A stretch of DNA of 58,495 bases, the filler included, from Asterionella formosa (Eukaryota), in assembly GCA_002256025.1 (NCBI GenBank). It is 5 parts of 5 records of this genome, joined end to end, with 100 filler letters (N's around TTAATTAATTAA, not from the genome) between each part and the next. Parts side by side here need not be neighbours in the genome. Positions count along the whole stretch, not along the records: positions 35,174 to 46,787 come from NKIB01008302.1; 4 more parts are not named here. The stretch is one strand, 5' to 3'. A program made the translations under genes and the position numbers. Numbering within the stretch: the stretch's first letter is position 1; each line of letters starts with the position of its first letter. Below the pieces are notes generated by a model. The model was not told where the DNA came from, ran no database searches, and worked only from the letters and a program-made list of their open reading frames with translations. Below are positions 4,828 through 53,417 of this stretch, one piece after another.

Positions 4828-7365
4828 TTACTTCTTCCATGCCTTGGGGCTTCCCCAAAATCGCTTCGGTTTAGCTTTGGGCTTCGGTTCAGCTGGTGCT
4901 TCAGGAACAGTTTCTTCCACTTTCTTCGCAGTGGCGTCAATCTTCTTGATTTCGAGCTCCTGGATGAACGAATGAGAGGTAAGCCCACCTCCATCATGAC
5001 CTTGCGTTGTTGGTCGCTTCATTGGAATGGTTGCCACGGGTACAGCTGCACTTCGAGGGGCGTTCATTGCTTTGGCGACAGATTCTCGATTCAAAAGGGT
5101 TGGTTGAATTTGCCCATCTGCTCCATCATCGCATATTTCTACTTTTCCAAAACAGGCGACGCTGTCCTCTACACCAACATCGGCAACATCCATGGAAAAT
5201 ACATTTCGAAATTCGGTGGGAGTCTTCGGTTGATTTGTTAGCAAGAGGTCCACGTCGGATACGATGGGCGCCTTGTTATTAAGCCGTTTCCTGGCTTGGT
5301 CTGCCACATCATCTGTCTCGTCTCCAAATACAGTGTACTTGTCTCCACCTTCTGGCTGCATTAAAGAATCATCAGAAGTAATGGATGGATCGTGGTTAGG
5401 AGCGATCCAACTTGCATTCGAGGCGGATTCTTTTATAGAAGAAACAGGTGACGTTGGCTCTGGGTCGTCAATGGAAATAGCACTTCTGCTCGCCGGCTCA
5501 GCAGGTGGTGTTGAAACTGCAGCCTGTTCTACAGTTACGGATGATGCAACTACAACTTCCTCCTTATTAGTGACACGACCTCCCCTGCGAAGGCGGAACC
5601 AATTCTGTTTTGAATTTATTGATTTAGGAACCACCTTGTCACTCACCACATCTTTTGTCACAGTCACATCAATTTCCTCAAGTGGCTGACCGGAAACTAA
5701 GTGACCCCACGATTTTGCCGTCAATGCCCCGTTGGGAATATCTGGTGCAGTGATGAAGCTGGGACCTGCTACATCACGAGGAGCCGAAGAATCCTTCATG
5801 TCATGCATGGCAAAACCATCCCATGATGCCATGGAAGGCGCTTCCTTGAGAGCTGAATCCATCTGGTTGGCCTGTTCCACGGCCTTGAGACTAATGTCAT
5901 CGTCATCAATGTTATCATCGTCATTAGGTTTAACCATTGTGGCAACAACTTGGTTGTATTTGCCCTTACTTGGGCGAGTAGACGCTTTTGTTGGTGTCCC
6001 AAGTGAACCATTGGACGTGTTCTTCTTCTTATTATTATTATTTCTTTTCAAAAAACTCATAAATCCTGGCTTGTTCTGCTTCTTATTCATCACTTCCTGA
6101 TTCTGTTTCTTTTTCCTAGATTCGTGCATGGGTTTGCTGGCGATGACAGCAGGTACTGATTTTGCTTTTTGTAGTTTCTTTCGTTTCCTTGCCTGTTCGT
6201 CTGCATCTTCTGCATCACCATCCAGAAATTCATTGAGTGAGCTGACACTAATGTCATCACCTTGACGACTAGGTATAAGACTCTCGCCAGCTGTCGTGGG
6301 ACTGACGAGTGTCCTTTCTTCAAAGGTGTTGTCAAATCCGAGTGTAGATATGGTTGTAGAGAGCCCCATCTTAGGAGAATACGGTTCATTCATGTCATCT
6401 TTTGCAAAAGCAGGTAGATTTTGTTGTCCTACCACAACTCTAACAATTTCCGCATCTCTCAAGGTGTTGGCTGACATAGTGGAGGTGGTGTCAGTATCAT
6501 CAACGTGATTTCGACTTTTGGTCTCACGTGCAACTTCCTTCACTCCGTCCCGCCTACTTTGCTCCCCATCCACAGCCGATTCTTTTGCGTCTGTACTAAC
6601 ATTGTCAACAAGAAATGATGGCAACATCCGTTCCAAGTTTCTCCTAGCTGCCTCGGCATGTTCTTGAAATCTTTGCAGTGCATCTTTTGCTGCAATAGTC
6701 AAGTCGTTTGCAAGTGACGCATTTTTAGTATTTTTCTTTTGCACCGGCGTTTTCCCAACTTTCTTTGGCCGTTGCGAAGGAGGAAGTAGAATCCCCCTGT
6801 CTGATGCTGCTGCTGCCTTCCAAGCCTCCCTTGCTTCATGCTCTCCTTGACTGGTCGAGTGTACCAATTGCTGCTCATCTGCCTCTTTCTCCACCAATCG
6901 ATGTGCATCCGCCGCTGCTTGAAATGCATCCTTCAGTAGCGTTTCCTTCGATTTTGCTTGAAACTCAGCGTCCTTGGAGTAGTAGTTGCCGCCATTGAGT
7001 GCCGCATCTAACAACCGCCTTGCGGATTCCGCCTTTTTGGTAGCTTCGGCTCTTTTTTGAAAGCGAGTGGCTTCGTCGTCTTCCACAAGTACAATGGCAT
7101 GTGCCTTCTTCACCTTGATGCTATTCGCTGCTTGCTTCTTGGCAGAACGGAAGGACCGAAAGGAAGCTCCACCTCTGCCCTTTTTAGCATCGTCGTCTTG
7201 CTCTTCGACCCACAGAATTTCTTGACCTTGCATCATCATTGTCGCATCGTCCTTCTTTGCGTGTTTTGATTTCTTCTTGGTCGACGACCGACCTTCCCGT
7301 GCGGATGCTTGTCGTTCCATGGCTGTGGCTGTTGTTGAGCTCATCGTTGCGACTACTGCTTCCAC
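4828..7365 (-). CDS. Large, mostly disordered/coiled-coil hypothetical protein (~840 aa)
   Basis: 2.5-kb open frame. First ATG at 7344. The sequence cacatag|GTGGAA at 7365 could be a splice acceptor, so an upstream exon is possible. Confidence 0.8.
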   Translation of the reverse strand: MEAVVATMSSTTATAMERQASAREGRSSTKKKSKHAKKDDATMMMQGQEILWVEEQDDDAKKGRGGASFRSFRSAKKQAANSIKVKKAHAIVLVEDDEATRFQKRAEATKKAESARRLLDAALNGGNYYSKDAEFQAKSKETLLKDAFQAAADAHRLVEKEADEQQLVHSTSQGEHEAREAWKAAAASDRGILLPPSQRPKKVGKTPVQKKNTKNASLANDLTIAAKDALQRFQEHAEAARRNLERMLPSFLVDNVSTDAKESAVDGEQSRRDGVKEVARETKSRNHVDDTDTTSTMSANTLRDAEIVRVVVGQQNLPAFAKDDMNEPYSPKMGLSTTISTLGFDNTFEERTLVSPTTAGESLIPSRQGDDISVSSLNEFLDGDAEDADEQARKRKKLQKAKSVPAVIASKPMHESRKKKQNQEVMNKKQNKPGFMSFLKRNNNNKKKNTSNGSLGTPTKASTRPSKGKYNQVVATMVKPNDDDNIDDDDISLKAVEQANQMDSALKEAPSMASWDGFAMHDMKDSSAPRDVAGPSFITAPDIPNGALTAKSWGHLVSGQPLEEIDVTVTKDVVSDKVVPKSINSKQNWFRLRRGGRVTNKEEVVVASSVTVEQAAVSTPPAEPASRSAISIDDPEPTSPVSSIKESASNASWIAPNHDPSITSDDSLMQPEGGDKYTVFGDETDDVADQARKRLNNKAPIVSDVDLLLTNQPKTPTEFRNVFSMDVADVGVEDSVACFGKVEICDDGADGQIQPTLLNRESVAKAMNAPRSAAVPVATIPMKRPTTQGHDGGGLTSHSFIQELEIKKIDATAKKVEETVPEAPAEPKPKAKPKRFWGSPKAWKK

Positions 7366-16225: not shown

Positions 16226-16690
16226 TTTTCAATTATACGATTATACAATCCTAAAAATTTGATGATTTACTGTCCCGCTGCAGTAGCAGCAGTCATGAAC
16301 ATATGGTGTTCTGTTGCTCGCTTACTACTCCAACTACTCTCTTTCAATTTTACGATTGTACAATCCTAAAACTATGATGATTTACTGTCCCACTGCAGTA
16401 GCAAGAGTCATGAACATATGGTGTTCTATTGCTCACTTACTACTCCGACTATTCTTTTTCAATTTTATGATCATACAATCCTAAAACTATGATGATTTAA
16501 TGTCCCGCTGCAGTAGCAGCAGTCATGAACATATGGTGCTCTGTTGCTTGCTCACTACTCTGACTATCCTTTTTCAATTTTATGATCATGCGATCCTAAA
16601 AATATGATGATTTACTGTCCCACTGCAGTAGCAACAGTCATGAACATATGGTGTTCTGATGCTCGCTTACTACCTGGTACTCTGACTACC
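16226..16690. repeat. Tandem repeat, four copies of ~115 bp
   Basis: Unit tttcaattttatgat...gatgatttactgtcccrctgcagtagcagcagtcatgaacatatggtgttct... starts near 16227, 16342, 16457 and 16571. Confidence 0.92.
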
Positions 16691-18374
16691 TGGTACCCCC
16701 AGTATATCACTTCCTACCTGCTACTGGTACTCTGTATATATATGATAAAATGTTATTGTCGTATGATGTACTGGTACACATGAAGAACTCCCGCCCCAAA
16801 AAGGGGCTTAAACAATTTGCTACCAAAATCCTTGCGTATAAATAATGATACATATGGGTTATGACTTAGTACACAAATTGAATGGTCTAAATAATTAGTT
16901 CCAACGGACGTAGAAAATATTGATGCAAAAAAATTTCAAAAAAATAGTACCGGTACGCGAAGTCGTGGAAAACAATGGACATCGAATTATCTATATGCAA
17001 ATATGATCATCTCAACAATACCAGATGTTCCATATTGAGAGTGCCTTTGATTTTTATAAATGTACGACACTTGATATATTTATATTTTTACAAATTTTAC
17101 ATGGCAAATATATTTGAAATCGTTCTGTCATGTTAACAAACAATGCCTGCTTCATGAAAAGAAATATCGTAGTAAAGCACATGACAAGGAAGGAAAAGTT
17201 TACGCAATAACGAAAAACATTGTGGCTTCGACACATTGCGCCTTCGAAGGATGGAGTATGTTTAAGGTAATGAAGCCATCAATGTGGTACTTGGATGAAA
17301 ATCGTTGGGAGGCAGGACAACAACAAATTGTAAACTAAACGCATATTTCCTTTTTTCTCAGTTGATTCAACAGCTCGTTTCGCTTGTTGGGGAGCACCAA
17401 TGTAAAACAAAACAAAGCAAAATTGGTAAGTGCTCTTGTCATTGGACTTATTCACTTCTGATTGAACATCACTGACGGACATGCCACGTTTAACTTCTCT
17501 CAAAGTTAAGCTAACGAAAATGAATCGGTAAGTTTTATTTGGCAACATTGGAAACCTGAAACTTAATTATTCAAGAATTTACTGACAATTTACTATTACA
17601 GACTTATACATCACTTGCTTTGATTTGGCTGTGGTAATTGAAGTAAGCAAAAGGATACAATGGAATGGCGTGATGTTGTGTCAGTGTAACATGTCTAGCT
17701 AACAAGTTGTTCCTTCTCATTGTTACTGTAACTGCATAGGACAATAAAACCGATCAAACGGAATAGCCGGCGAGTTCAGAATGACACTAACAGCAGGGAG
17801 AGAGACGCAACATTAGTAAGGCATTGCTTGGCACAAGATTCAGAAAAGAAGAAGAAAAGGACGAGACAGGAACAATATACATTGAGCCGAGTAGAGAGAG
17901 AAACGTTGGGTCGCTGGCATGTAGATTAATAGATAGCATTGCTAAATTTGATAGTTAAATTACGATCCATTTCAATCTATTTTGAACAATGCTTGTGATA
18001 GAATTATGATCATGTTTACGGAAGATTTACGATGAAACAATTTAAATGATAGCATAGAGTTGAGCTGATTTTAGGATGCCTTGTAAAAATAATTTACATC
18101 GGGCAATTACAAGAATTGAAAATAATATGAGAAGGTTTATGATGATGATGAGTAATGTTGTTGATCAGTTGATATACATTGTGTGATGATAATGTTCTTA
18201 TTATCATTATACTTCAAGGTCGGTAAAATATTAATAAATTATAATAGTTATGGGATACCTTGATCATAATTTTGATCCAAATATTATCATATATACGAAA
18301 ATCCTGTGCCACTTAGCGTACGATACCCTTGATCCTATATGCATGATACTTTTTTTTTGCAGACAGATATAGGA

Positions 18375-24496: not shown

Positions 24497-26570
24497 ATGG
24501 CAATGTATTAAAGGGTTCCTGTCATTCCTTTGATCAAAGATTACAATGTATTGACTATCAAGACTAAAACATTCAGAGTTGCTTTAAGCGGTAGAAGGTT
24601 TGAATTGTTTGATCAAGATATAATCGATGGAAGCTCTGTGGAAGCATTGTTGATTGGAGTGAATCAATTTCGAGACATGGCTAACACATGTGCCTTTAGC
24701 CCTGCAGATACCTTTTCCTACTTTAGAAGGTGTTTGACCGACATTGCCTTATCGGATTGATTGAATGTGGAAGTACATCCAGAAGATCAATCCTGCGATA
24801 GTTTCGATGAAGCAATGTCTTTATGGTTAGACGATCGTTTGCCAAACGAGAGTTTGAAACGTCAATGGATGCTGTGCTACTTGTCTAAACCCTTTTCTAT
24901 GTGGGAATGGATTTCGGAGCTCGTATTAAACTTTGAACAGGCTATTTCAACTAATTCCTCATCCAGAAGATCAAAACGGATTGTCAAAAGAAGATATGCG
25001 GATTATCATCATCCGTTCTATGCCTGATGAGTGGCAACAAGAGTTTGAATTGAATCATGCTAAAACTTCAGATCAATCCATTCGCTCGGTTCTCGCTTTC
25101 TTCGAGAGTCAACAATTGTTTGAGGATCAAAACAAGCACCTTCCCATGAAAATTTTTCAAACAATCACGCAAAATCATCTTTGTATTGCTGAAGGCAATC
25201 GTGTGATGCGTCAAGAAAACGAGTGTGTCAGTCGTCAATTCTACATCGATAATTTTACTCCAAGTGGTCGTGGAAGAGCGCGTGCTATTGTCAATGCAGC
25301 CGGTCGCGCATGGGATCGTCAGGCAACTGTTTGTCATCAAGCTCTACAAGCCAGTCGTACGTACCATGATTATCGTGGCCCTTGCCCGGTACATCCTGAA
25401 GGTACACATACTTGGAGCAATTGTTTTCAGAATCCTCGTACTCAATGTGGTCGAGCAGGTCGCATGGCTGGTCGTCCATAATGGACGTGGCTGTTCCAGT
25501 TTCGGTAGATGAGGACATTTTGGTGGTCGTGGAGGCGGTTCACAGAGTAATCCTACGGAAAGCTACCGTACTGACACTGCTAACCCTGCGCCTGTTCCAC
25601 ATGCTTGTATGTTAAATACATGAGGTCGTAATACTCATCCATCCGATTGGGGTACCGTGCCTTGTGCCGATCCTACCGAGAATACATCGGCCCAGGAAAT
25701 TTCAGTGGTCACAAACCCTCCTGCTGGTCAGATGGTGACTTTTGTCCCTACTACACAACAGCAGATTGCTGATCGCCATTACAGAGGTATGTGCGATAAT
25801 AGCGATGCTTTATATAATGACTCATAGAGTATATCTCATGTTAGTCATCACCTGGATAATATTATTTATTTACAGGTTGAATACACTATGAATACCGCTG
25901 TTGCTGTAACGCAGGACATATATAAATGCATCGATGGACATGACGTTCCACATACTACATATCAGGGCCCAATTCCGGTTTCCTGTTTTACTTCTAAGGA
26001 TATATTAATGATTCCGATGTCTCTTGTAGCGCCACGATTGGTGGATGCTATGCCTATGCCTATGCCTATGCATAAAATACTACAAGTATTATTTGATAGT
26101 GGAGGATCCTTATCCTTAATACAAAAACGGGTTATGCCTCAAGGTATTTCTTTGTCTAATGAGACTTCCCAATTAATACATACCATAGCTGGTACTTATT
26201 CATCTCGTGCGAGAGTTATTTTATATGACCTGATTCTACCTGAATTTAATCGATCTGCTCGTGTTTTAAAACAAAAGTGTCAAGTTTTTAATGGTCTATG
26301 CACATTTGATGCTATTTTAGGACGTGATTTCCTTTGTCAAGTTGGTTTAACCATTGATTTCGTAAATAACACCATGTCCTGTATGGATATGACTGTTCCT
26401 ATGCATTCTCTCACATTCTTTGATGATGGAGAACGTTTACGTGATGTATTATTATGTTTTGATGCACCTATGATTGTGGAATTTTCTTATGCGCTGCAAA
26501 TTAAAGCTGCTGAATATAATTATGTGAATATTGATACAGTGGTGAATAAACAGATGCATTTATGTCCCTG
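24497..26570 (+). mobile_element. Degenerate Ty3/Gypsy-like LTR retrotransposon: gag and aspartic protease remnants
   Basis: Gag-like SMPDEWQQEF and zinc knuckle CPVHPEGTHTWSNC; protease motifs LFDSGGS and DAILGRDFL. Multiple stops and frameshifts. RT absent. Confidence 0.75.
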
Positions 26571-28045
26571 TCCCTGTCGTTTTGCGTGTTTCCTTGGACT
26601 TGGAAAGCTTCATAAAGTAGTGGAGTGTAGTTGAGAAAGCCAAAAGACAGAAACGATTTTGAGGAACCACTAAGAAACGTCAGGACTGCAATGGGGTCAT
26701 TGCAACCTGATAACCATAAATTTGCGAGCGCATGACAAGAAAGTGGGCACTGGATGTGCAGAAATTCGACTGGCGTCTTCGGCTTTAGAAACCGACCTGA
26801 GCTATTGCTGAAGGCAATACACGCCCGAGGTGGTCTCTTGCCTGCGAGTATACATGTGTTCGAGGCTGGAATGGCACTCGTAGGGTGACCTTCTTGCATT
26901 CTGCCAGTACCGGCAGTCATCTAGTCTACATATGTACGTGGTACTGAAAACAACCATGCATGCTTTAAGCTATACTTTCACACTTACTTTGAACACGTTA
27001 TAATATTATCTCTGTAGACTCGGTATTATTTTTACGAGACCTGAATGTTAAATTATATCAGTCACACATTCATTGATTTTACGTACCGTATGTCCGATTT
27101 CGTCCTCACAAATATAGTTCTCACTCTATCTTGCCTGCCTTTGCTCTATTCGGGCTTGCAATAGGCAACATTCGTCTTTCTTTGATCCCATCTTCTGCTG
27201 CTTGTTATGATAGTTGAAGCGGATCGGTGAGTACAACAGTGAAACACTGAATGTTGATTGTAGATCGTATTTATCGACTTTCCAATTTGATTGCTTCTGT
27301 GGTTTATTTTGATCGCTTCCGTCTTTGTTTGTAGTTCCGCACTGTCGTTTTGTTTCGAATTTATGTATCTACATAAGGACCAATGCATTTATCAATGACT
27401 AGTCATTGAAGATGTGGTATTGTGCCGTTGTTGATTGTATTTGTTGATTTGTATAGTCGTTGACAATGATGTCAATATTGCCACCAAGCAATGCTTTTCC
27501 TTTACTAGCGCGCTTTGCTACATTTCTACTACAAGTTTGTATCAGAAGCTACATGACGAATACTCAGCTAGAGGGAGTCGATAGTGCTGAAGAAGCCTGG
27601 CGATTATGCTCAATCAAAATGGATTGGAATGGAATGATGATCAGGGTTGTTTGGTGGGAGGAACGAGGACTGTGGGCGGAAGGACTGCAACTTGTGTCAG
27701 GCTCGCTCCTACAGCGATATGCATGGTTACAGCAAGCAAATCATCTACGCTTCATAACGATGTAGGTCAAGATTGGGTTCAGCTTTTTCCCTTCTTATTT
27801 CGGTCGTTGATTGTGTGGTGATGGAAATTCAATTGCCTGTGTAAGTACTACAACGTCACTATGCATACATCTCCATTGAAACTCTTATTTTTTAATTCAT
27901 TTCTAACCCAAAACAATTTTTTCTATTTCTCATTTGACGCTATTTATTACATTGCATTTCATACTTTGGTTGCTCCAAAAATCATGTTCAATTTTCATTT
28001 ATGTTTCATGTTACAATCATTCTCGTGTGTTTTACGCTTGTAGTA

Positions 28046-32149: not shown

Positions 32150-34090
32150 TTAGAATGAGTTACTATCAATATATCATTCATGCAACCAGAAACATTCTCC
32201 AGATGATGTCAATGTATCAATTCATCACAAAAACAACACCATTTCGTAATGATGGATTCCCAATACTGATTCCCCTATATCTCCACTATCAATATTCAAT
32301 CAACCCAAATTTGGTAATGATTTTTTCCCAATACTGATTCCCCTATAACTTCATCAATATTCAATCAACACACCATGTTGAACGTCTCAGTTAATCGGCA
32401 CGTAGTATAGAACATCCTTCAGATGATGTCACTATATCATAACACACCATTTGGTCATGATGGCTTCCCTATTCTGATTTACCTATAACTTCATCAATAT
32501 TAAATGAATGCATCATGTTGGACCTCTCAATTCATTGACACATATTGTAGAATAAGTTACTACCAATATGTCATTCATACAACAAGGAACATCTTCCAGA
32601 TGAGGTCACTATGTCATTTCATAAGAAAACAGCACACCATTTGGTAATGATGGTTTCCCAATACTGACTCCCCTATAACTTCATCAATATTCAATAAACA
32701 CACCATGTTGAACGTCTCAATTCATTGGCTCATAATATTGAATAAGGTACCATCAATATGTTATTCATACAACAAGGAACATCCTCCAGATTAGGTCACT
32801 ATGTCATTTCATAACGAAACCACACCATGTGGTAATGATGGTTTCCCTATTCTGATTTACCTATAACTCCATCAATATTCAACTTAAGCATCATGTTGAA
32901 CGTCTCAGTTCATTGGCACAAAGTATAGAATAAGGTACTATCAATATATCATTCATACAACAAGGACCATTCTTCAGATGATGTCACTATATCATTTCAT
33001 AGAAAAACCGCACCATTTGGTAATGATTGTTTACCAATACTGATTCACCAATAAATCTATCAGTATTTAGCCAAGGAATCATGGTGAAACGTTCCTTTTT
33101 ACTGACACAAAGTATAGAATAAGGTACTATCAATATATCATTCATGCAGCAAGGATCGTCTTCCAGATGATATCAATATATCATTTCATAACAAAACCAC
33201 ACCATTTGGCTGGTTATGATGGTTTCCCTATTCTGATTTACCTATAAGCAACTTCATCAATATTAAATGAATGCATCATGTTGGACCTCTCAATTCATTG
33301 GTACATATTGTAGAATAAGGCCCTATCAATATGTCATTCATACAACAAGGAAAATCTTCCAGATGAGGTCACTATGTCATTTCATAAGAAAAACAGCACA
33401 CCATTTGGTAATGATGGTTTCCCAATACTGATTCACCTATAGCTAACTCCATCAACATTCAACCAACACATCATGATGAACCGTTACTTTTAACTGGCAC
33501 AAAGTATAGAATAAGGTACTATCAATATATCATTCATACAAAAAGGATCGTCTTCCAGATGATGTCAATATGATATCATTTCATAACGAAACCACACCAT
33601 TTGGTTATGATGGTTTCCCTATACTGATTCCCCTATAACTCCATCAATATTCAAGCAACGCATTATGTTGAACGTCTCGATTCACTGGCACATAGTATAG
33701 AGTAAGTTACTATCAATTTATCATTCATGCAAAAAGTACCATCTTCATGATTAGGTGTGTCGGTATACAATTCTATATCAAGAATGCCGCACACCTAATC
33801 CTTGCTACTGACTCTTCTGTATCTCTATCAATATGCATTCAATGTATGATGTGGAATGATTCAATTTACTGGAAGATATTGTACAATAAGTTACTATCAC
33901 TATGCAAGTCACTGGAAGATGATAGTATACAATAAGTTACTACCAAGCAATAGCTATGTCATTCATGCAATTAGCACAATATTCTATAGCTTTGATGTCA
34001 CCACAACATTTTATATCAAAGCAACACAATTTTGCTAATGATTGTGTCCCACTACTGATTTTCATATAACTTTGTTTATCAATATACCAC
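32150..34090. repeat. Satellite array, ~190-bp monomer, about 9-10 diverged copies
   Basis: Anchor aataaggtactatcaatat recurs near 32155, 32551, 32741, 32929, 33118, 33315, 33510 and 33700. The array decays at the right end. Confidence 0.92.
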
Positions 34091-35989: not shown

Positions 35990-38085
35990 TTGTACGACAA
36001 TGTTAACGCTTTACTGTACAGTATAATGTACTTGTTAGGGTTACAACTTTTGTCACAATCTGACTTACAACTCAACCTACAGTCAACAATCGTTCAAACA
36101 GTTATCCCAACGTTCAAACAATCGATTCTACATATGTATATCAAATCACGCAACGCATTTGACCAAACAAACGTAACTAACAAGCAGAAACTCTGTATGG
36201 AATCATTTGCCAAAATGACACTTTTTGACAATACTGCTACACTCACTACTATGGAATTCGACAAAGAACACAGCGTAGAGCCCAACCAACTCTCCAAATT
36301 AATTAATGATAAAATAAACAAAGCCACATTATCATTAAGGAAAGAGCTTGCTAAACTCATGGAAGCATCACCATCAAAAAACACATCAAGAGGGGCAACC
36401 AATAGTGTCAACACAACAGTCAAACATGGAAAGAAATCAACAAACAAAACAACCAAGACAACTTCCAGAAAGAAAACAGACCAAAGCGCCTCACAAAAAA
36501 AGAAAAAAACAACCAATCACAACAACATAACCATCAACTCCAAAAACAAAGCCGACGTTATAGACTCAGGTACCTCAACAGAGAACAAAAAACTGACAAA
36601 AAAGAAGAAGACGAAATAGCTAAGAAACATCATCATTGCACGATTTCAATTACAAAACACATCCATTACAACTTTGGATTCATCAGCAACCCAGAAAAAT
36701 CAATATCATACAACACAAAGAAACTTCTTCGAAACCTACCACCCTGGCTATATTTCTCAAGACCACAAAATATTGCATATCACAATCTCTCTACATCCTC
36801 TGAGAAAACCACATTTGGAATTAAATCACTTCTTGGACTTGGCCTCAATTTCTGTATAACGCCAAGATATTCACCCAAAAGTGAAACTATTGACTTCACA
36901 AGATTCAACCAGGACATGTTAATAAAGTTTTACTTCGCAGGTTCTGAACCATTACCTCCAACTAAACTTTTCATTCCCTCCAGTTGGATACCTCCTCATC
37001 ATGAAATCACTTCCGAATTCCGTGTCAGAATCAATACGTTCAAAAAAACACTTCCGACTCTTTTTCGACACAAACACAGTCGACATAACCTCTTACCTGC
37101 CTTCACAACAAAGGGCACTCGAATCACTAACAAACAATGAAAAACTCATTGTTTTCCGTTGCGATAAAAATCTTGGTCCAGCCATTATCGAACGCTCTCG
37201 ATATATTGACATGGCTTTCCGTGACCATCTTCTTAATAAAAATATCTATCGACAACTTTCAGAACAACAACCTGGAGGACGGATCAAGGCAATCACAAAC
37301 CTGATTACGAAGTTTACTCTTATGCACTTTAAACCAAAAGACACAGTATCAACGTTCCTTATCCGATCCCTACAAACAAAAGACCCATTTGCATACTTCT
37401 ACTTATTAGAAAAAATACATAAGACACCACTGACAACCCAGCCAATCATCAGTGTCAGCGGAAGTATTTGCCATGGGCTCAGCAAATGGACTGATGGTTG
37501 TCTCCAAAAAATTACCAAACATCTTCCATTTACCCTCTCAAGCTCCTTCAAGCTTGTCCATGATATTCCTGCCATTAATAATGTTTCAACAACCGCCACC
37601 TTATTTACTATGGACGCATTGGCTATGTACACCAACATAGACACCACACACGCACTTTCCAAGATCAATAAATTTCTACGCACAGACAGACCAGACATCT
37701 GCCTCAACGAAAACATTAATATTGATGCACTCATGAACGCACTCGAAATTATCATACGACACAACATCTTTAAATTTGGTGATACATACTGGCTCCAAAC
37801 ATCCGGCACAGCTATAGGCACACCTCCGGCACCAACATATGCCACTCTTTATTTCGCAATTCACGAAACAAAAATTATCCCTACGTTTCCGCAAATATCC
37901 TTCTACAAACGATATATTGACGATTGCTTTATAATCTGGGTCCCTACATCACCCACCCATATTGAAGATCAACATTCACACAACTTATTCATCAACTCAA
38001 TGAATACTTATGGCACGTTAAAATGGAATGCAGACCCATGAAGTTTATCAACAACCTTCTTGGATCTTACAATCTCTATTGATGG
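35990..38085 (+). mobile_element. Penelope-like retroelement: upstream basic ORF (to 36619) and decayed reverse transcriptase (~36650-38085), truncated by a Copia fragment
   Basis: Motifs LGLGLNFC, DKNLGPAI, KIHKTPLTTQPIIS.SGS, MDALAMYTNI, GTAIGTPPAP, RYIDD, and FLDLTI after an in-frame TGA. GIY-YIG region not present. Confidence 0.85.
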
Positions 38086-40125
38086 TTGTGATGGAATGAG
38101 GGGGATGTTTGCGTAGTGTATTTAAGGTTAGACCTGGAAAATTGACAAGATACCCATGGAGTAATGCGCTTTCCAAAGTGGAGATAACAGGAGAAAAGAG
38201 GGCCGCATGGGCAAAGGCAACAAGGGCTGGTGCATTGGGACTGCCAATGGCGGTAGCAGCGTAGTGGGTAGGTGTAGGCAATGGTGGATCAATAGTGGAG
38301 GTGGTGACATGCCATAATCGAGTGGTGGTGGAGCGATGGCCCTGAAGGATGCAATGACCATTTGATAAGACAGACATGTGTAGTTTGGTGAAGAGTACCT
38401 TGTAGCCAGAATCACATAGTTGTCCAATGCTCAATAAAGAGCAATTGTGTAGACTAGGGACAATGTGTACATGACGAGCAGCAGGTAAGAGCATAGGTAA
38501 AGATAATTTGGCCTCATGTGTAGATTTAACATGGTTGCTGTTAGGAAGTTGAATGGTGATAGGGTTGGTGGTAGGTCGTTTGTTGATGACAGGTAAATCA
38601 ACAGTGGCGTAATTGCCAGAACTACCAGAATCAGCAATGAGTGTGACGGGGGGACAAGTGATGGAAGATAAGTTTGTGTTAATAGTAATATCGACAGCAA
38701 CTTGCTCCCCTCCACATCAAGCAAGTGGTGAAGGTGGCGGTGAAACACGGGGTGGCCAGGTAGGACGGGTACCATCACTGAAAATACGAACGCTGCCACC
38801 CAGATGTCGATCAAGGGTGGCATTGAGTTGATGGCCAGAAGCTGGATGATTGCAAGTTGCACTGGTATGGTCAGGGTTTTTGGTAAGACCATGAGTCCAA
38901 CAATAGCCTAATTGGACATTGTTGTAAGTGTATCCAGAAGGGACAGCACAAGCAGCTGCAGCAATACCTGGCAATGGGGGAGGGCCAGCACTGGTTTGAA
39001 TGGCAGCATGGGCACCATGATAACCGGCAGTGGTGGCGGTGGCAAGGCGCAATCGTTCCTTATCAGCATGCATGAAATGTGGGCAAAAATTAACCCATGT
39101 AGTACGGTCCAGCTCAGCGCGATCACGCCAAGTTTGAATGCTATGAGAATATACACCAGCCTGTTCTAAAGCAGAAAGAGTCAATTGCATGACAGTACTG
39201 TCAGAGAAAGGTTCCCCACCAGCATTGGCAATGGCACAAAGATGTTTGATGTGGATCCATAAATGTTCAATAGGTTCCTCTAGTGTCCAAGCATCAGCCA
39301 AGCGCATGCGATTGAGTTCTAAATCATCCACACTCAATGTTGTATATGTAGATTCTAAGTGAGCAAGCAAGGTCAGAACAGTGATGTCTGCATATCCAAA
39401 TGTAGCATCTTCCAGAACGTTGTAGAAATTTGGGTCAATGGCTGTTAGAATTTGTTGTCGGAGAATTTCACGGATTTGGGAGTAACAGCGGAATGCGTCA
39501 AGGGAGGTCTCAAAGAGACGGTTGGCAGCAGTGATTTGGGAATGTGTTGCAGTAGCACTTTGTGGCGGCTGGATGTCGGGATGTTCGGGCGGTACAAAGG
39601 GTTCACCAGCACGTAAAAGATAAGGAGCAGCAGCCATGACAATACCAAGGAAACCATTGGCACCACCACCACTGGTACAGTGGACAGAGCGAGCGTTGGC
39701 AAAGAGTTCCTTGCGAAGGCGGGTTACAGTGAAGGCTGTAGGTTTGCCCTCGATCGGCATCAAGAGCGGATGAGGGAATGGGAAAACAGCGGAAACGATT
39801 GGAGTCGTCATGGTGGAAGAAGGCCTGAGAGACAGGGACAGCAAACGGGCAAGCGGTGCTGGATGGTTGATTGTTGAGACCAGTGCTGGTTTGCACTGTC
39901 GACAAGAGCCGCAACGTCACAGGTGCGGACAAGAGAGAGAGAACAGATATTGTAGTTCTGTTGAGGGGAACCTTGTCGTGAATAAAGATGAACTACAATA
40001 TTATGACTATTCTGTTGCTGTTCCAAGTACATCATTGTTAGCACTCATGTATGTACCTAATCTGGTGGCTGCGCCAGTATGGTTCGTACGGCGCATGTAT
40101 GGAGCATCATATCTAGATATTAACA
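38085..40125 (-). mobile_element. Ty1/Copia LTR retrotransposon of the diatom CoDi type, 5' portion: LTR 39959-40125, gag 38717-39811, protease and pre-integrase region 38085-38716
   Basis: LTR TGTTAATATC...CCCCTCAACA. Gag GGG.NG.LG and YCWTHG...HTSATC; protease ADSGSSGNY and LLSIGQLCD; HAALFSP...FPGLT. Confidence 0.9.
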
Positions 40126-40233
40126 ACTATGATTCTTTGTGTAGAGACTATGATTCGTCACTTCCACTTATCAATGCTTCTGCAATGGTATCACCTGGTA
40201 CTCGGAGTGCAGCTAGTAATCAGTACCACGTCC

Positions 40234-40440
40234 CTGGTACGGAGTATATAACAGGTACTCTGATAGCTCGGAGCTTCGGAGTACTTGAGGAAGTCTCGAG
40301 TACCAGTACAGCTGGTACGGCGGAATATGTACCTGATAGCTGGTACGGAGTATGTAACAGGTACTCTGATACTTCGGAGCTTCGGAGTACTTGAGGAAGT
40401 CTCGAGTACCGGTACAGCTGGCACAGCGGAATATGTACCG
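40234..40440. repeat. Tandem duplication, two copies of ~106 bp
   Basis: ctggtacggagtat.taacaggtactctgata..tcggagcttcggagtacttgaggaagtctcgagtacc occurs at 40234 and 40340. Confidence 0.9.
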
Positions 40441-44496: not shown

Positions 44497-46558
44497 TTAG
44501 GGATGATCATTTACATTACGACGTGATGGCCAAACAATCTTGTTTTGTTTCCATAAAATATCAAAATGTTCAATGAGTTTACTCTTGAAGAACTGTAAAC
44601 TTAAATGCTGGACCACTTGAACTGTATCAACATTCTTTGTTAGCACTTCAATATTGAAGTTGTCCTTTGGATCTGGCACTAAATTGCGAATTGCATCAGG
44701 AATTTGTCCATCACCATCATTACCAGGACCCATTCCAGAGGTATCAATTGTTCGCAAACTGACTAATCCAAGTACTGTCGGTCTTGCAACTGCATTTAGC
44801 CTTTGAATAGCAAAAGGTGCTTCAGCTCCGTTTAATTGGCCTAATGGTCCTCTCCAGTCACTTAAAACACCATTTTGCCATTGCAGGTCTAAGCCATCAA
44901 TATCAAGTAACATGTTATGAAATGCACATTATGTTAGCTAGACCTTGTCAGGTTCTGTTACTCCATGTATTCGGATGCCTGATTTTAAAATCCGCCAGCA
45001 TCCCTTGAGTATTCCAAAGGTACATTCCACATCTTTTCTAAAAGACTCCAGCCATTCAGACCATCTAAGTTCTTGTTCAGTTTCTGGGTTTTTGGTTGGA
45101 GGCACTGTTGTAGACCATTTTAGATATCCATCGTCAACTATCAAAAAGCATCCACTATACTTTATGGATAGAACTGCTCCATTTCGATCTTTTTCTTTAA
45201 GCTCAAACTCCACATCTTTTAAGGCATCTGCACCATTCTGGATGCCTCGAGCAAAAGTATCAAAGTTGATTAATGTTTTATCATTCCATCGACAAGGATG
45301 CCCTGTGGTACTAGACAGGATTCTCCGGCGATGATTCACAGTAGCATTATAAGTCCTGGCTGTACAAGGAATTTTTGATGATAAATGCTGGTTCCAAAGC
45401 TGATTGAAGCATCACTCTTTTGACACATGTGTAGCATCTGTGGACCCAAGACATCCAGGGAAACCTGCCTGTGTCATTTCAAACATGTGATGCTCTGCTT
45501 CCAATGGGTTTGTTGGAGTTCTAACATATTTTTTGTAAAAGGATGGTACTTCCAACTTCAATAAAGGCATGGAAGAATTGCCTGTGGATCTCTTGACTGA
45601 TACCAGTATTCTCCTCAATGTCATCAAAAGTCCATCCTCTCCCTAGGTACCTGAATGCTCCTAAAACCATAAGTTCAAGGGGTGATGATGCCCTTCCTGT
45701 TGCATTAGGTCGAGTCCAGCGAGGAAACCAATTTGAATCTCTAGCATCAACAACAAATTGGAGGAACTGGTTGTGTGGTAGTCGAAATCTGCGGCGGAAT
45801 TTCTTTTGAAATGACAATGATTCAACTGCTGGTCTGGAAATGTATAGTATATACCAGTTTAACATCATCACAGGAGTTATCATTTGAATTAGCCCTTTGT
45901 CATTGACGTATTCACAGACCTTGTTCTTTCCTTTCACTCTAACTCTTGGAGGTAGAGGCACATTGTTAAGATTTTGTATTTCTGGAGTGGGCATGAGTAG
46001 AGTTCTTCCGAAATCAGACAAAAACTAAAGATACTGGAAGTATTTCTCTGGTTCTACCTCACCATTAGCATCTAGACATTGTACAATGTTATGTGGGCGA
46101 TGGTCACATGAATCCATGAGTGCCATGTTGGTGAAATGTGGGTTTGATGACATGTTGATTGTGGAGAAATCCGAGATGATTTGTTGTTCTTGCTGTTGTT
46201 GTTCTCGACAGTGTGGTCCCCTGGTACCTGGTACCAGAGTACCGTATAGCTATTGTTGTATCTATGTATGCTATACTGGTAAATGATGCGTCCTATATGT
46301 ACTGATTCTACGATGATAATAATTGGGTTTCTAGTGAATACATTCAAAGTAGTCAATATGGAATCCTACGTTTGGGTAACTTTGGGAAAAAAAACCTAAA
46401 CGTAATGCGTTTGGGTAAATTATTGGGATATGGGCACGGAATCTCCTAAACGTAATGCGTTTGCGTTGGGGTTTTCACTCCCGTTAGCATCGTTTTTTAG
46501 GGTTACCGAAACCAAAACACTGTTTGGTTTGCGTTTTGGTCCACCGTTAGCAACGGCC
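44497..46558 (-). mobile_element. PIF/Harbinger transposase pseudogene (44497-46153) with subterminal repeats and a TIR ending at 46558
   Basis: Motifs KFRRRFRLP, GFPGCLGSTDATHV, LIVDDGY and ESFRKDVECTFGILK (DDE). Terminus CCACCGTTAGCAACGGCC|TAA. cctaaacgtaatgcgtttg is repeated nearby. Confidence 0.9.
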
Positions 46559-48072: not shown

Positions 48073-49296
48073 ACAAGTGACAAGACAATGAGATTTGAAC
48101 AGGCGATGTCATCCTTGTTGATGAAGACCTCGCATAGCAATCACTTCAAGTTCTCATCTGTCCGGTGCTCCTCCTCTTGTTTCAATTCATTTCACGGATG
48201 ATTTTGTGATTTCATGACAAATCCTCTTATGTAGTGTTTCAGGTAGTAGTCACGCCGAGAGGTCGCAGCTGATGTTCTCCATTTAGGTAGAGGAGAATGC
48301 AAAATGACGTCATTATATATTTTACCGTTAAAAAAATCTATTCAAACACTAAATGAATCTACCAACGGAAATACTTTCAAATACCTGTATACATATATAA
48401 AAGGTAATGCCAGCTGAATGTGGAGTAAAAATTACGTCTGCAAATAAATAATATCGTACTTATAAGATCAGGGGTATCATACGATAACTGTCACAGAATT
48501 TTTCTGTGCATGATACATATTTTGTTATATGTATGATAAATGCATACTATGAAAGTGAACAGGCTAAGCTTACTCATGTAATCAAACCACCATTTAATTA
48601 TCAAAACTATATCCTATGATATATAAACAAAGATGTGTCAGTGGTGTTCTGACAGTGGCTTTTTGATCCAACAAGAGCATTTACAAGTTTTTGGTCGACA
48701 TTGGTGGTATCCTGCTGAATGCAAAATGTGCTTTTGAATTGCTAGGGAAGGAGGCAATCATTTAGTCTTTGTGAACCCAACAATTGCTCACCTTGGCATG
48801 TACTCTTGACATACCATAGCTAGATTCCATTCACTCTTCCATTTTCAATCCTTCTAAGCCGCAAGGTTTATCATCATTGTGTGCGTTGAAGCGTCGTTCT
48901 TTCAGTTTTCCTTGTCACAGAAGGGCAGAGATTATCTTTCATTTCAGGATCATGTGGTACCGGTAGGCATAACAAGGAACCTCTAAACATGATTTCAAAT
49001 GTATAGGCTATGTCTACATTTATAAAAATTTGAAAACGTATAAATATATACACATAATGTTTATACTATTATCAATTAAGCTTATACATATTCAAATATA
49101 TACAATGAATGTGGATATCATTGTTTCCATGACCTGATGTACTGTCTTTGAATTTTTCCGCATCAATTCTTGTGCCTACAAGTAAGTAATTTAATTAAGC
49201 CCCTCAATTAGCGGGAGTCATATGAAATTTTTCATATGGTACAAATCATTACATATTTACCGGTAGATCAATCGCTCGAATCAATCTTTATGATTT

Positions 49297-49605
49297 ACAG
49301 ATCATACCTCCTGATTAGAAATGATTGCCAATAAATAAGATCACAGATGACAATTTTTAGCTTTTTTGATCTTACTTTAAACATGAATATATCTTACTAC
49401 TAAAAATTACAGATCATACTTTCCAATTAGATATGATTGCCAATAAATAAGATCACAGATAACAATTTATAGCTTTTTTGATCTTACTTTCAACATGAAT
49501 ATATCTTACTACTAAAAAATTACAGATCATACTTTCTGGTTAGATATGATTGCCTATAAATAAGATCACAGATAACAACTTTTAGCTCGTTTGATCTTAC
49601 TTTTA
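49297..49605. repeat. Tandem repeat, three copies of ~112 bp
   Basis: tacagatcatac...atgattgccaataaataagatcacagat...gatcttacttt occurs near 49297, 49408 and 49522. Confidence 0.92.
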
Positions 49606-49609
49606 ACCT

Positions 49610-49880
49610 AAGTACGAGGTGACAATAGATATCAATGTCACCTTGTTTGTACGAGAACAATGTGTTTTTCTTGCGTCCCCTCCATCACCAATAGACAATA
49701 CAATTGTCGTCACCTGGTCTGTACAAGAACGTGTTGTAGCCTGAGTACGAGGTGACAATAGATACCAATGTCACCTTGTTTGTACGAGAAAGTGTTATTG
49801 CGTCCCCTTCATCACCAACAGATACCAATGCCACATTGTTGTACGACTGCGTGATATTGCGTACCCTCAATCACCTTTAG
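49610..49880 (-). pseudogene. Decayed RNI-like LRR coding repeats
   Basis: Repeated nucleotide blocks translate to (V/I)GD(E/G)GDA...RTNKVTL.SI. Confidence 0.45.
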
Positions 49881-49988: not shown

Positions 49989-51380
49989 TGTTAATATCTA
50001 CGTATGGTATTCCGTATCTGCAATGTATGATACCTACCGGCGTAACCACCAGGTTAGATACATGCGTGAGTGCTAATATAATAACAATGCACTCATGACA
50101 GCAATAGAATAGTCTTAATATTGTAACTCACCTTTATTCACGATAAGATTCCCCTCAACAGAGTTACAATATCTGTTCTCTCCCCATTGTCTGCAGCACT
50201 CGTGCCATTGCGGCCTACGTTGGCGGAGTCATCACTGCTTTTCACGCGCCTATGCCCCACCGATTGCCCGCGTTTTTTCTCGATTCTCTCCTTTGCCCCT
50301 CTTTCCAACCTTCATACATCATGGCGACTCCCCTTGTTTCTGCCGTTTTCCCTTTCCCTCATCCGCTCCTAACGCTGATTGATGGTAAACCTACAGCCCT
50401 CACTGTGACCCGTCTTCAAAAGGAAATCTTCGCCAATGTGCGCTCTGTAAATTGTACAAGCGGCGGTGGCGTTAACGGTTTTCTTGGCATCGTCATGACT
50501 GCTGCGCCTTATCTCCTACGTGCCGGTGAACCCTTTTTACCAGCCATGCATCCTGGCACTGGCACACAACCGCCGCACAGTGCCACTGCTACACAGTCAC
50601 AGATCACTGCGGCCAACCGTCTCTGTGCGTGACACCTCCATTGATGGATTCCGCCGATATTCTCAAATCCGCGAAGCCCTTTGTCAACAAATATTAACAG
50701 CCATCGACCCTACTTACTACAACGTTCTCAAAGATGCTACTTTTGGATATGCCGACCTCACTGTGGTGTCTTTACTCTCTCATTTAGAGATTACTTATGC
50801 CACATTAAGTGCTGATGATCTCGAATTTAACCACATGCGTTTAGCTGATGCTTGGACACCTGATGAACCATTGGAACAGGCCAATGTTTACGCACATAGT
50901 CTTCGAACTTGGCATGACCGCGCCTCAAATGACCATACATGGGCGAATTTCTGTTCACATTTCATCCACGGGGATAAGGAACACTTACCCATGTTAACTG
51001 CCACCACTGCAGGATATCATGGTGCTCATGAGCTGCTATTCAGACCAGTGGTCATACCCCCCAGCCAGGCTTTCACCACCAGTGGTACTGCCCCTATGCC
51101 CAGTATTGCCACAGCACAGCCCGAGCTGTCCCAACTGGATATATATACAACAATTTACAATTAGGATATTGTTGGACTCAAGGTCTCACCAAGCACCCCG
51201 ACCACACCAGTGCCACCTGTTACCATCCCTCTTCTGGACATCAGCTTAATGCCACACTTGATTGATGCATGGGCGGCTGCATCTGTATCTTTGGCGATGG
51301 TACCCGTACCAACTGCACACCACATGTCCCCCCACTTTTCATGCCACCTGCTTGATATCAAGGGGAGCAAGTTAACATCG
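49989..51380 (+). mobile_element. Second, more decayed copy of the CoDi-type Copia family: LTR 49989-50160 and frameshifted gag from 50281-50323 region (MATPLVSAVFPFPHP) to 51355
   Basis: LTR and gag are colinear with 38717-40125 (MATPLVSAVFPFPHP vs MTTPIVSAVFPFPHP; GYCWT.GLTK). Confidence 0.9.
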
Positions 51381-51539
51381 TTAATACTAAGCTTTTCTAT
51401 GCACAGCTCTGATGTTCAGGAACTAATTAGGTAACATAAATACTCATGAATATATTTCACTAATATATATATATATATATTTACATAATATATATTAAGC
51501 TATCTTGCTAACTTGCTTCTTGTTACATCTTTTATGAAA

Positions 51540-53417
51540 TTCGTCATGGTGATCAACAAGTAGTTGAACTCTATTCTACCATTGACTTTGTTTACCCACA
51601 GCCACTGTTTCATTCAAGAAGTTGCAGTGTGAAGTAACATGCAAATCCATGCAGTCACCTCGCACAGTATGCGCAATATGCTGTGTCAGAACTTTCACAG
51701 TCAAGGTAACCATCGCTTTCTAATAGAATGTTATGAAGCATACAGCATAATGTGAACGCATTTTTGATATGCTCAGGTCAAGACAAGTTGTTCCAGTTCT
51801 TAAGAAATAACCATCAACTTTTCAATATACCAAAAGTACATTCAATATCTTTTCGAACAGACTCCACCATCATAACCCATGCCCTTTTTTTCCATGTTCA
51901 TTGCCATATTTAATTGGACAAATCAACACTGGCCATCGTAGGTACCCTCCATCACAAATGAAATATTAGCCTTTACAAGTTATAGAAGACTCAACAGTGA
52001 GCACATTCCACTCTTGCCTGCCAAGAAACGAATTTCTATCATGTAGATTGGAAACAGCAGCATCAAACTTGACTATGTGTTTGTCATTTCTTGTTCCAGG
52101 GTTTAAGTAGCTGATTGATAAAATCTTTCTTCTGTGATCAGAAACCACCTCAAAAACAACTGAAAGATACCCCATGGAACCTTTAAATATATTCTTCTGG
52201 TAGGCAGGACATCGATTCCATCCAATGTGCACACAATCGACTGAGCCTATACAACCTGGAAGCCCAATGGAACTGTAATCATTTAGAATTTGTTGCAGTT
52301 GGTCATCATCTTCCTCTTCCTCTTCCTCTCTCAGTATGTATACATATTCATCCTTCTTTTCTGCAAACTTTGAAGTCCAGTGAATGAAAAAAATTTCGGT
52401 GTACCTCTTTAGAGATGTCAGTTTGAATGTACACATACAAATCGGAAGCACCGGTTGCTAGAGTGTAGAGAACACCCAGGAAGAGCAACTCAAGGTCCTT
52501 GCACAGAAGGTTGGTGCAATCTTTCCTGTGCGGATCATACCAACCATTTGATATTGTCATATCATACATTTTCAAGAATATGTCGAATGGAAGACGAATA
52601 GTTTGCAAAAGAGTCTTACTTCCCATGTGTTCATGTCCAAATGTAAGATGCGCTTTTCGTTTGTTAGGAACTTCTTCCACCAACATGACTCTTCCCTTGA
52701 CACCAGAGAGGTCGTTTCTAAAAGATGCGCTTTTTGTTTGTTAGGAACTTCTTCCACCAACATGACCCTTCCTTTGACACCAGAGGTCGTTTCTTTTTTT
52801 TGGCTTAGCAGATGTTGTTGGATGGCGATTGCTGTTTGATGGCAATTGCTGATTCTCTCTTTCAGATTGAGCTTCCAAATGGAACTGAGAAACCAGCTCA
52901 TTTCGCAACGCAGCTGGCAAGGCTGCTGGTAGTTGCCATGACAACCATTGTTGCTGCCATGGCTGAACACACTGTTGATAATGTGCCAGGAAGGTTGACG
53001 ATGGCGTTGGTGGAGTCGTCATGTTACAAATTATTATCATAACAAAAACATTAAAAGTATCAATTATTATATTAATAATGACAATAATACTACAATAAAA
53101 GTACCGAAGCATCGAATACTATATCATCAGTATATGTGATGACGATTATATATTGTTTCCGCCATTCTGATTGGTGGAGACAATCTTCGTTTGCCCGAAG
53201 ATTAATCTTTGGGAAACGAAGATTGTTCAAGAAAATACTAAGATTGGTTCAATATCGGGGATAACCCTCGAAATATTCAGGCGAACGAAGATTAATCTTC
53301 GTAATCGGGGGGATTTACGAGTTATTTAGCCCGTAAGGGACGAAAACACGAAGATTATACGCCCAACAGGTATCCGGGCGACTGAATCTTCGTAATTCGG
53401 CCACTGTAAGATGGGCC
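51540..53417 (-). mobile_element. PIF/Harbinger transposase pseudogene (start near 53022) with a TIR ending at 53417
   Basis: Motifs GLPGCIGSVDCVHI, ICDGGY, ESVRKDIECTFGILK and CCMLHN. Terminus CCACTGTAAGATGGGCC|TAA. Subterminal palindromes cgaagattaatcttcg. Confidence 0.88.

Follow-up and report, generated by a model that had tools for sequence, protein, structure and literature searches.

Self-priming of long terminal repeat (LTR) retrotransposons is proven for Tf1 and has been predicted for the Tf1/sushi and Tcn1 groups, and Tf1 reportedly requires a U5-IR stem-loop inside the loop of its priming structure. In Tf1, the 11 bases at the start of the RNA pair with the primer-binding site (PBS), and the primer is made by an RNase H cut between bases 11 and 12 (Maxwell 2020, PMC7175516). 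Among plant Ty1/copia elements, Neumann et al. (2019) predicted self-priming for the TAR lineage and cited an earlier proposal for Houba and Osr-1 (PMC6317226). For the fungal GalEa Copia elements, the authors found neither U5 nor R to contain a complementary stretch and state that the Tf1 model does not fit (PMC5445492). Here we analyze a stretch of 58,495 nucleotides from the diatom Asterionella formosa (assembly GCA_002256025.1; hereafter the window), which consists of five contigs of about 11.6 kb each with runs of N between them and carries two copies of a Copia family, copy 1 on the minus strand of the fourth contig and copy 2 on the plus strand of the fifth. Comparative analysis indicates that this family very probably primes its own minus-strand DNA synthesis with its own RNA, in the manner of Tf1 and with no tRNA. 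The self-priming reading, which an earlier note on this DNA had put forward from the two copies, was supported family-wide by a PBS that abuts the LTR and whose complementarity to part of the element's own LTR is kept through compensatory changes.

The LTRs and paired segments of the two copies are as follows.

39959..40125, minus strand: 5' LTR of copy 1, 167 bp, TGTT...AACA; homology with copy 2 starts at 40125.
40003..40006, minus strand: initiator-like TCAT motif of copy 1, with a predicted transcription start at 40004-40003.
39990..40001, minus strand: putative self-primer segment (arm 1) of copy 1, ATATTGTAGTTC, in the predicted R; exact reverse complement of 39958-39947, covarying with the PBS across the family.
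39959..39989, minus strand: 31-nt loop of copy 1, the remainder of R-U5, reaching the LTR end.
39947..39958, minus strand: PBS (arm 2) of copy 1, GAACTACAATAT, beginning at the first base past the LTR; reverse complement of arm 1.
49989..50160, plus strand: 5' LTR of copy 2, 172 bp, with 76% identity to the LTR of copy 1.
50118..50129, plus strand: arm 1 of copy 2, ATATTGTAACTC; the preceding motif is TCTT (50113-50116), not TCAT.
50161..50172, plus strand: PBS of copy 2, GAGTTACAATAT, abutting the 3' end of the LTR.

The 12-mers were confirmed to be exact reverse complements in both copies. The copies have only about 1.4 kb in common (LTR, leader, and gag, at 70–73% identity, ending at 51389 in copy 2), and between them the arm and PBS differ by G-C to A-T and by T-A to C-G; as the earlier note had described for these separate contigs, both differences are compensatory and keep Watson-Crick pairs. 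This layout resembles that of Tf1 and Tf2 of Schizosaccharomyces pombe and the Tf1/sushi group as published: directly past the LTR stands a PBS whose complement is found within that LTR, at or close to the RNA 5' end, with a length of 11 nt in Tf1 and 12 nt here (PMC7175516). A further pairing reported in the note, between the LTR-terminal AACA and TGTT just past the PBS, is present in both window copies (W1 and W2) but did not hold as a general feature, being carried by only 6 of 50 distinct sequences of the family (W1, W2, L001, L002, L018, and L075). An Rfam search of 39700-40300 returned a single chance-level match, to a snoRNA (E 0.45).

Relatives of the two copies were collected through gag, for which the protein collection contained 64 homologues, all without any Pfam domain. 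An alignment of 12 gag sequences yielded 78 loci on metagenome contigs (cited by L numbers), whereas a broader alignment of 41 sequences was too diverse for a search pattern. These loci came from marine, estuarine, lake, and sediment samples, and their gag identity ranged from 94% down to about 30%. L001, L002, and L003 showed 96–97% identity to copy 1; in L001 and L002 the whole element is assembled in circularly permuted form with collapsed LTRs, the period being about 5.4 kb, and the open reading frames (ORFs) are intact. Near-identical full-length copies with intact ORFs exist (L001), and end-to-end coverage was found in four RNA libraries, in which the element occurred with shares of 0.29–0.42; this coverage comes from contigs only, and DNA may be present in these libraries.

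We scanned up to 450 nt upstream of gag for hairpins in 69 regions, namely those of both window copies and of the 67 loci whose sequence extends at least 120 nt upstream. In 49 of the 69 real regions, the longest perfect hairpin reached at least 10 bp; none of the 69 mononucleotide shuffles did so, their maximum being 9 bp. The canonical layout, in which one arm lies within the LTR and its partner immediately past it, was found in 58 of the 69 regions: 54 were recovered by the scan, L071 and L076 had it just outside the scanned stretch, and L007 and L030 each had it with a single mismatch; the stems of L017 and L078, to which these two are closely related, are perfect. Among the 11 other regions, eight lie on contigs that start inside or downstream of the expected site.

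After removal of duplicates, 50 distinct sequences were aligned, giving 400 cells for the eight inner pairs of the stem. Watson-Crick pairs occupied 99.5% of these cells compared with 69.5% in shuffles (a level reached by 0 of 500), and no G-U pair, that is, no one-sided change of this kind, occurred among the 400. All eight inner pairs showed two-sided changes, with 120 double-changed cells against 30.5 in shuffles and a covariation score of 0.79 against 0.17, and pairing fell to 26–37% when the partner was shifted by one to three columns. Covariation of the LTR 12-mer with the PBS, for which the earlier note had proposed a test, is present across the family in the metagenome loci. RNAalifold recovered the same helix unprompted, and the arm/PBS stem was the minimum-energy fold in all eight leader RNAs that were folded (z −2.9 to −6.5). 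When anchored at the LTR end, the stem had 9–16 perfect pairs in 48 of the 50 sequences (exactly 12 bp in 26) and one mismatch in each of the other two; the loop measured 19–55 nt, most commonly 31. The second arm began at the first base past the LTR in all 50. The PBS itself was diverse, with 36 distinct 12-mers and 28 distinct 8-mers, a diversity that requires at least about 26 changes in one arm to have been matched in the other on any tree. Judged from these compensatory changes, the pairing is kept under selection, and the comparative sequence evidence for it is unusually clean.

The position of the PBS depends on where the LTR ends. Neither copy 1 nor copy 2 has a 3' LTR in the window, so the LTR end of the earlier note, taken from TG...CA, was a guess. 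It proved correct to the base. In the four informative loci (L009, L040, L050, and L063), the second LTR copy stops exactly at the predicted last base, with unrelated DNA beyond; similarity to the second LTR continues in L001 and L035, owing to collapsed or adjacent copies, and the contig ends first in L003 and L065. L050 is a complete element, with LTRs at 292-436 and 5751-5898, the polypurine tract GGTGAGGGTG, and a 5-bp target-site duplication (CATCC/CATCC). In addition, four contigs of RNA-library run X1 depart from L001 exactly behind place 55, the last LTR base, into differing flanks, and five depart exactly before place 5307, the first LTR base. With L001 serving as a 97%-identical proxy for the window's own subfamily, these departures at places 5307 and 55 confirm both borders of the 167-bp LTR of copy 1. 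Because the second LTR copies, the L050 duplication, and the X1 contigs fix the LTR end, the PBS begins at the first base past the LTR.

Directly 5' of the LTR arm, a short, nearly invariant motif recurs across the 50 sequences, as TCAT in 39, CCAT in seven, and GCAT in two. The first paired base lies 2–8 nt past the A of the motif, most commonly 4, and CAT never falls within the pairing. Kadono et al. (2015) proposed TCAH+1W as a diatom initiator-like (Inr-like) consensus, and the TCAT|A of the family fits it (PMC4686930). Since the LTR arm lies directly past a conserved TCAT that fits this consensus, it is probably located at the RNA 5' end. The motif suggests that the RNA of copy 1 starts at about 40004-40003 and not, as the note had placed it, at 40001; in copy 2 it is mutated to TCTT.

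From these features, the following course of priming can be proposed. Transcription would begin at the conserved TCAT of the LTR, at about 40004-40003 in copy 1. The leader would then consist of 2–5 free bases followed by the 12-nt segment, which would fold back over the loop of about 31 nt onto the 12 nt past the LTR; covariation shows this pairing in the predicted leader. By analogy with Tf1, the RNase H of the element may cut the 5' segment behind its final paired base, where the 50-sequence alignment has a nearly invariant C|A step. The new 3'-OH would face the first base past U5, a boundary that is observed, and reverse transcriptase (RT) would presumably copy U5 and R from it. A cut behind the LTR arm that primes copying of U5 and R would explain the exact position of the LTR end. 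Finally, plus-strand strong-stop synthesis would copy the primer back into the PBS, so that the PBS would be rewritten from the leader in each cycle. In the established retroviral model, plus-strand strong-stop synthesis likewise copies the 3' end of the tRNA into the PBS. Such rewriting would explain why the pairs are strictly Watson-Crick and yet drift freely between sublineages; the absence of G-U pairs and the free drift of the pairs fit templated copying of the PBS.

The comparison with described systems revealed both likenesses and differences. As in the published account of Tf1, the PBS is not tRNA-like and the duplex is closed by an R-U5 loop (PMC7175516). Unlike Tf1, a Ty3/Gypsy element in which self-priming was shown experimentally, the present family is a Copia family with integrase before RT and is known from sequence alone; its loop is only about 31 nt, its pairing probably begins 2–5 nt past the start rather than at +1, and an inner stem like the U5-IR is not conserved. 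The plant TAR lineage, including Houba and Osr-1, is described as consisting of Copia elements predicted in silico to self-prime (PMC6317226), a property it would share with the present family; it is a green-plant lineage, in contrast to the diatom family here. The premise of the earlier note that Copia elements normally use tRNA and that self-priming is a trait of the Tf1/sushi group is out of date and too strong, because self-priming had already been predicted for the TAR lineage (PMC6317226). The fungal GalEa Copia elements are similar in lacking a tRNA-type PBS and in having a conserved hairpin at its position, but the first arm of GalEa is described as a palindrome across the LTR end with its partner downstream, whereas one arm lies inside the LTR here (PMC5445492).

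The strongest alternative gives the hairpin a different role as a structural RNA element, for instance in packaging, dimerization, translation, or the control of polyadenylation within the 5' LTR, with priming carried out by some other, unseen primer. Covariation demonstrates pairing and not priming, no start site is visible in the RNA-library contigs, and a Copia hairpin whose role is described as unknown does exist at the PBS position in GalEa (PMC5445492). We nevertheless consider this improbable: the 3' arm lies at the first base past the LTR in 50 of 50 sequences, exactly where a primer 3' end must sit, and this counts against another role, as none predicts that position. Nor is an alternative PBS visible, a TGG occurring within 22 nt past the LTR in only one of the 50 sequences, and the sequence past the arm is not conserved.

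Considerably less probable is that the PBS binds a host tRNA or a fragment of one, at its 3' end or an internal half as in copia or Bianca, and that the LTR stretch merely resembles that tRNA. Half-tRNA priming is known in several Copia lineages according to the same survey that predicted TAR self-priming (PMC6317226), and the window and the 48 loci scanned yielded no host tRNA for comparison with the PBS. Against this stand the 36 PBS 12-mers among the 50 relatives, each matched to its own LTR, a variety that conserved tRNAs cannot follow. Both arms change jointly, which a third partner would forbid, and in none of the 50 distinct sequences does the PBS start with TGG, so the note's observation that the tRNA-type TGG is missing extends to all 50.

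Equally doubtful is the view that the motif, read as CATAAT or TATAAT, is a TATA box, with transcription starting about 30 nt further on and arm 1 lying only in the 3'-end U3, where it would pair in trans or at a distance. In its favour are the A/T-richness of the motif, its form in L049 (TATAAT), and RNA-library contigs in which no start is visible. Under this view, R plus U5 would drop to about 15 nt or less; moreover, the invariant part is CAT rather than TATA and fits the diatom Inr-like consensus, and pairing halts exactly at the motif, as if the RNA began there. Accidental complementarity, or an artefact from placing the LTR end wrongly, could be argued while the case consisted of two copies with two compensatory changes and a guessed LTR end; it has next to no probability left and is regarded as refuted, since no shuffle attains 10 bp and the predicted last base of the LTR has been confirmed exactly.

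Several observations weigh against self-priming by the course proposed above. Both window copies are dead fragments. The contigs from the four RNA-library runs cover the whole element and show no transcription start, poly(A) site, or cDNA intermediate; one X3 contig ends 11 nt past arm 1 (place 5453), a single contig end that is no evidence of an RNA end. ARAGORN found no tRNA genes in the window and in the 48 of the 78 loci that were scanned, leaving no host tRNA set to set against the PBS. If transcription starts at TCAT, the paired segment would begin at about +2 to +5 and not at +1 as in Tf1, and R plus U5 would amount to only about 46 nt, leaving 31 nt or less for the first strand transfer. 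The inner U5-IR-like stem forms in some members (L006 and L026) and not in others (W2 and L027), and RNAalifold predicted no conserved inner helix family-wide. Lastly, L008, L019, and L048, the remaining three regions without the canonical layout, have the upstream sequence and no hairpin; they look truncated or chimeric.

The coding remains of the two window copies are as follows.

38717..39811, minus strand: gag ORF of copy 1 (P0001), intact, 364 aa, with the stop TGA at 38719-38717; 94% identity to the gag of L001.
38078..38716, minus strand: start of pol of copy 1 (protease region), 212 aa in the gag frame and then broken off, identified by tblastn.
50321..51334, plus strand: gag remnant of copy 2, frameshifted, with tblastn pieces in different frames.

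Residues 1-212 of L001 pol matched copy 1 with 95% identity (tblastn), and no further pol match was found in the window; a Pfam search of the window gag and protease ORFs gave no match. Placement was based on L001, because the window copies end before the integrase. In L001 pol, SH3_retrovirus, an integrase-associated domain, matched residues 440-496, upstream of RVT_2 at 913-1029; both Pfam matches are weak, RVT_2 lying under the Pfam cut-off. Homologues of this pol mostly carry PF07727; among them are proteins of Cylindrotheca closterium, Fragilaria crotonensis, and Fistulifera solaris, all three diatoms, with annotations as Ty1/copia-type RT or integrase. Judged by the domain order of L001 and these annotated homologues, the family is a diatom Ty1/Copia family, which upholds the superfamily assigned in the earlier note. 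Its ends have Ty1/Copia features: the LTR reads TGTT...AACA in the window, the polypurine tract GGTGAGGGTG precedes the 3' LTR of L001 and L050, and L050 has the target-site duplication CATCC. The LTRs of some members end in TTA or GTA, not CA. The family resembles the CoDi elements of Maumus et al. (2009), diatom Ty1/copia elements described with the order PR-IN-RT-RH, in some of which one stop separates gag from pol (PMC2806351). Membership of the Tf1/sushi group, which are Ty3/Gypsy chromoviruses, was considered and rejected, as the family has the Copia order and RVT_2, whereas that group has RT before integrase and a chromodomain.

At the gag-pol junction there is a single stop, after which pol continues in the gag frame (window 38717-38719, minus strand; L001 1289-1300). 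Among 57 loci examined, 36 had a long open frame past the stop, and in 33 of these the stop was in frame with pol (TGA in 30 and TAG in three); GAGGG is conserved about 6 nt downstream of the gag stop, as in TGA TGT GGA GGG. Judged from the reading frames, this layout is of the stop-codon read-through type, as in gammaretroviruses, and not of the frameshift type. In L001, the pol frame stays open across the polypurine tract and reaches its stop about 120 nt inside the 3' LTR (5307-5425). One pol homologue with 55% identity (P0146), on a 5.4-kb contig, is filed under the bacterium Marinobacter shengliensis and most probably represents diatom contamination in a bacterial assembly.

Diatom genomes are rich in stress-responsive Copia elements, whose way of initiating reverse transcription is not described in the papers searched. 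Full-text literature searches found no report of self-priming in diatom elements, and the main text of the CoDi paper does not mention primer binding, tRNA, or self-priming (PMC2806351). The diatom case is probably a further instance of a known mechanism, predicted earlier for TAR Copia elements and apparently unreported for diatoms. A mechanism proven only in fission-yeast Gypsy elements and predicted in plant TAR would, with the diatom clade, extend to a third, distant branch, which bears on the proposal that hairpin self-priming is either old or easily re-invented among LTR elements (PMC3601003). Tentatively, and with somewhat more doubt than belief, we raise the possibility that a whole widespread clade of diatom Copia elements dropped tRNA priming independently of Tf1/sushi and plant TAR, with leader and PBS drifting jointly as a private address. 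If true, the clade would be a natural case of built-in compensatory evolution, the 50 sequences showing 36 variants without a single G-U pair, and the drift could form a barrier to cross-priming among co-resident sublineages. For the annotation of diatom LTR elements, the reverse complement of the bases past the LTR should be sought just past TCAT within the LTR, as PBS finders based on tRNA will overlook such elements. The natural leader/PBS variants also constitute a ready series of compensatory mutants for tests of the mechanism.

Other repeats and elements were observed around the two copies and among their relatives. Adjoining the break point of copy 1, a 371-codon open frame lies on the opposite strand (36926-38041, plus strand). 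Its translation (P0186) contains the RT-like motifs SGTAIGTPPAP... and FYKRYIDDCF and has no Pfam match at E 0.01; the frame probably belongs to a different retroelement that cut copy 1 short when it inserted. Fragments of PIF/Harbinger-type DDE transposases (DDE_Tnp_4, Plant_tran) lie near the Copia copies on both contigs (44938-45411 and 51966-52457, both on the minus strand) and showed weak mutual similarity by tblastx. On the third contig, an ORF at 25828-26634 (plus strand) has a weak match to a retroviral aspartyl protease (RVP, E 2e-4) and is probably a leftover of another LTR element. In L009, an additional LTR copy (575-760) is followed directly by a short stretch resembling a polypurine tract and by the 5' LTR of the element, an arrangement that looks like a tandem or recombinant LTR. 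Four tandem-repeat arrays were found in the window, at 32151-33785, 16226-16788, 49295-49631, and 40218-40429, with periods of about 190, 115, 112, and 106 nt, respectively; upstream of copy 1, the array with the 106-nt period stands 93 nt from the LTR, and upstream of copy 2, that with the 112-nt period stands about 360 nt away.

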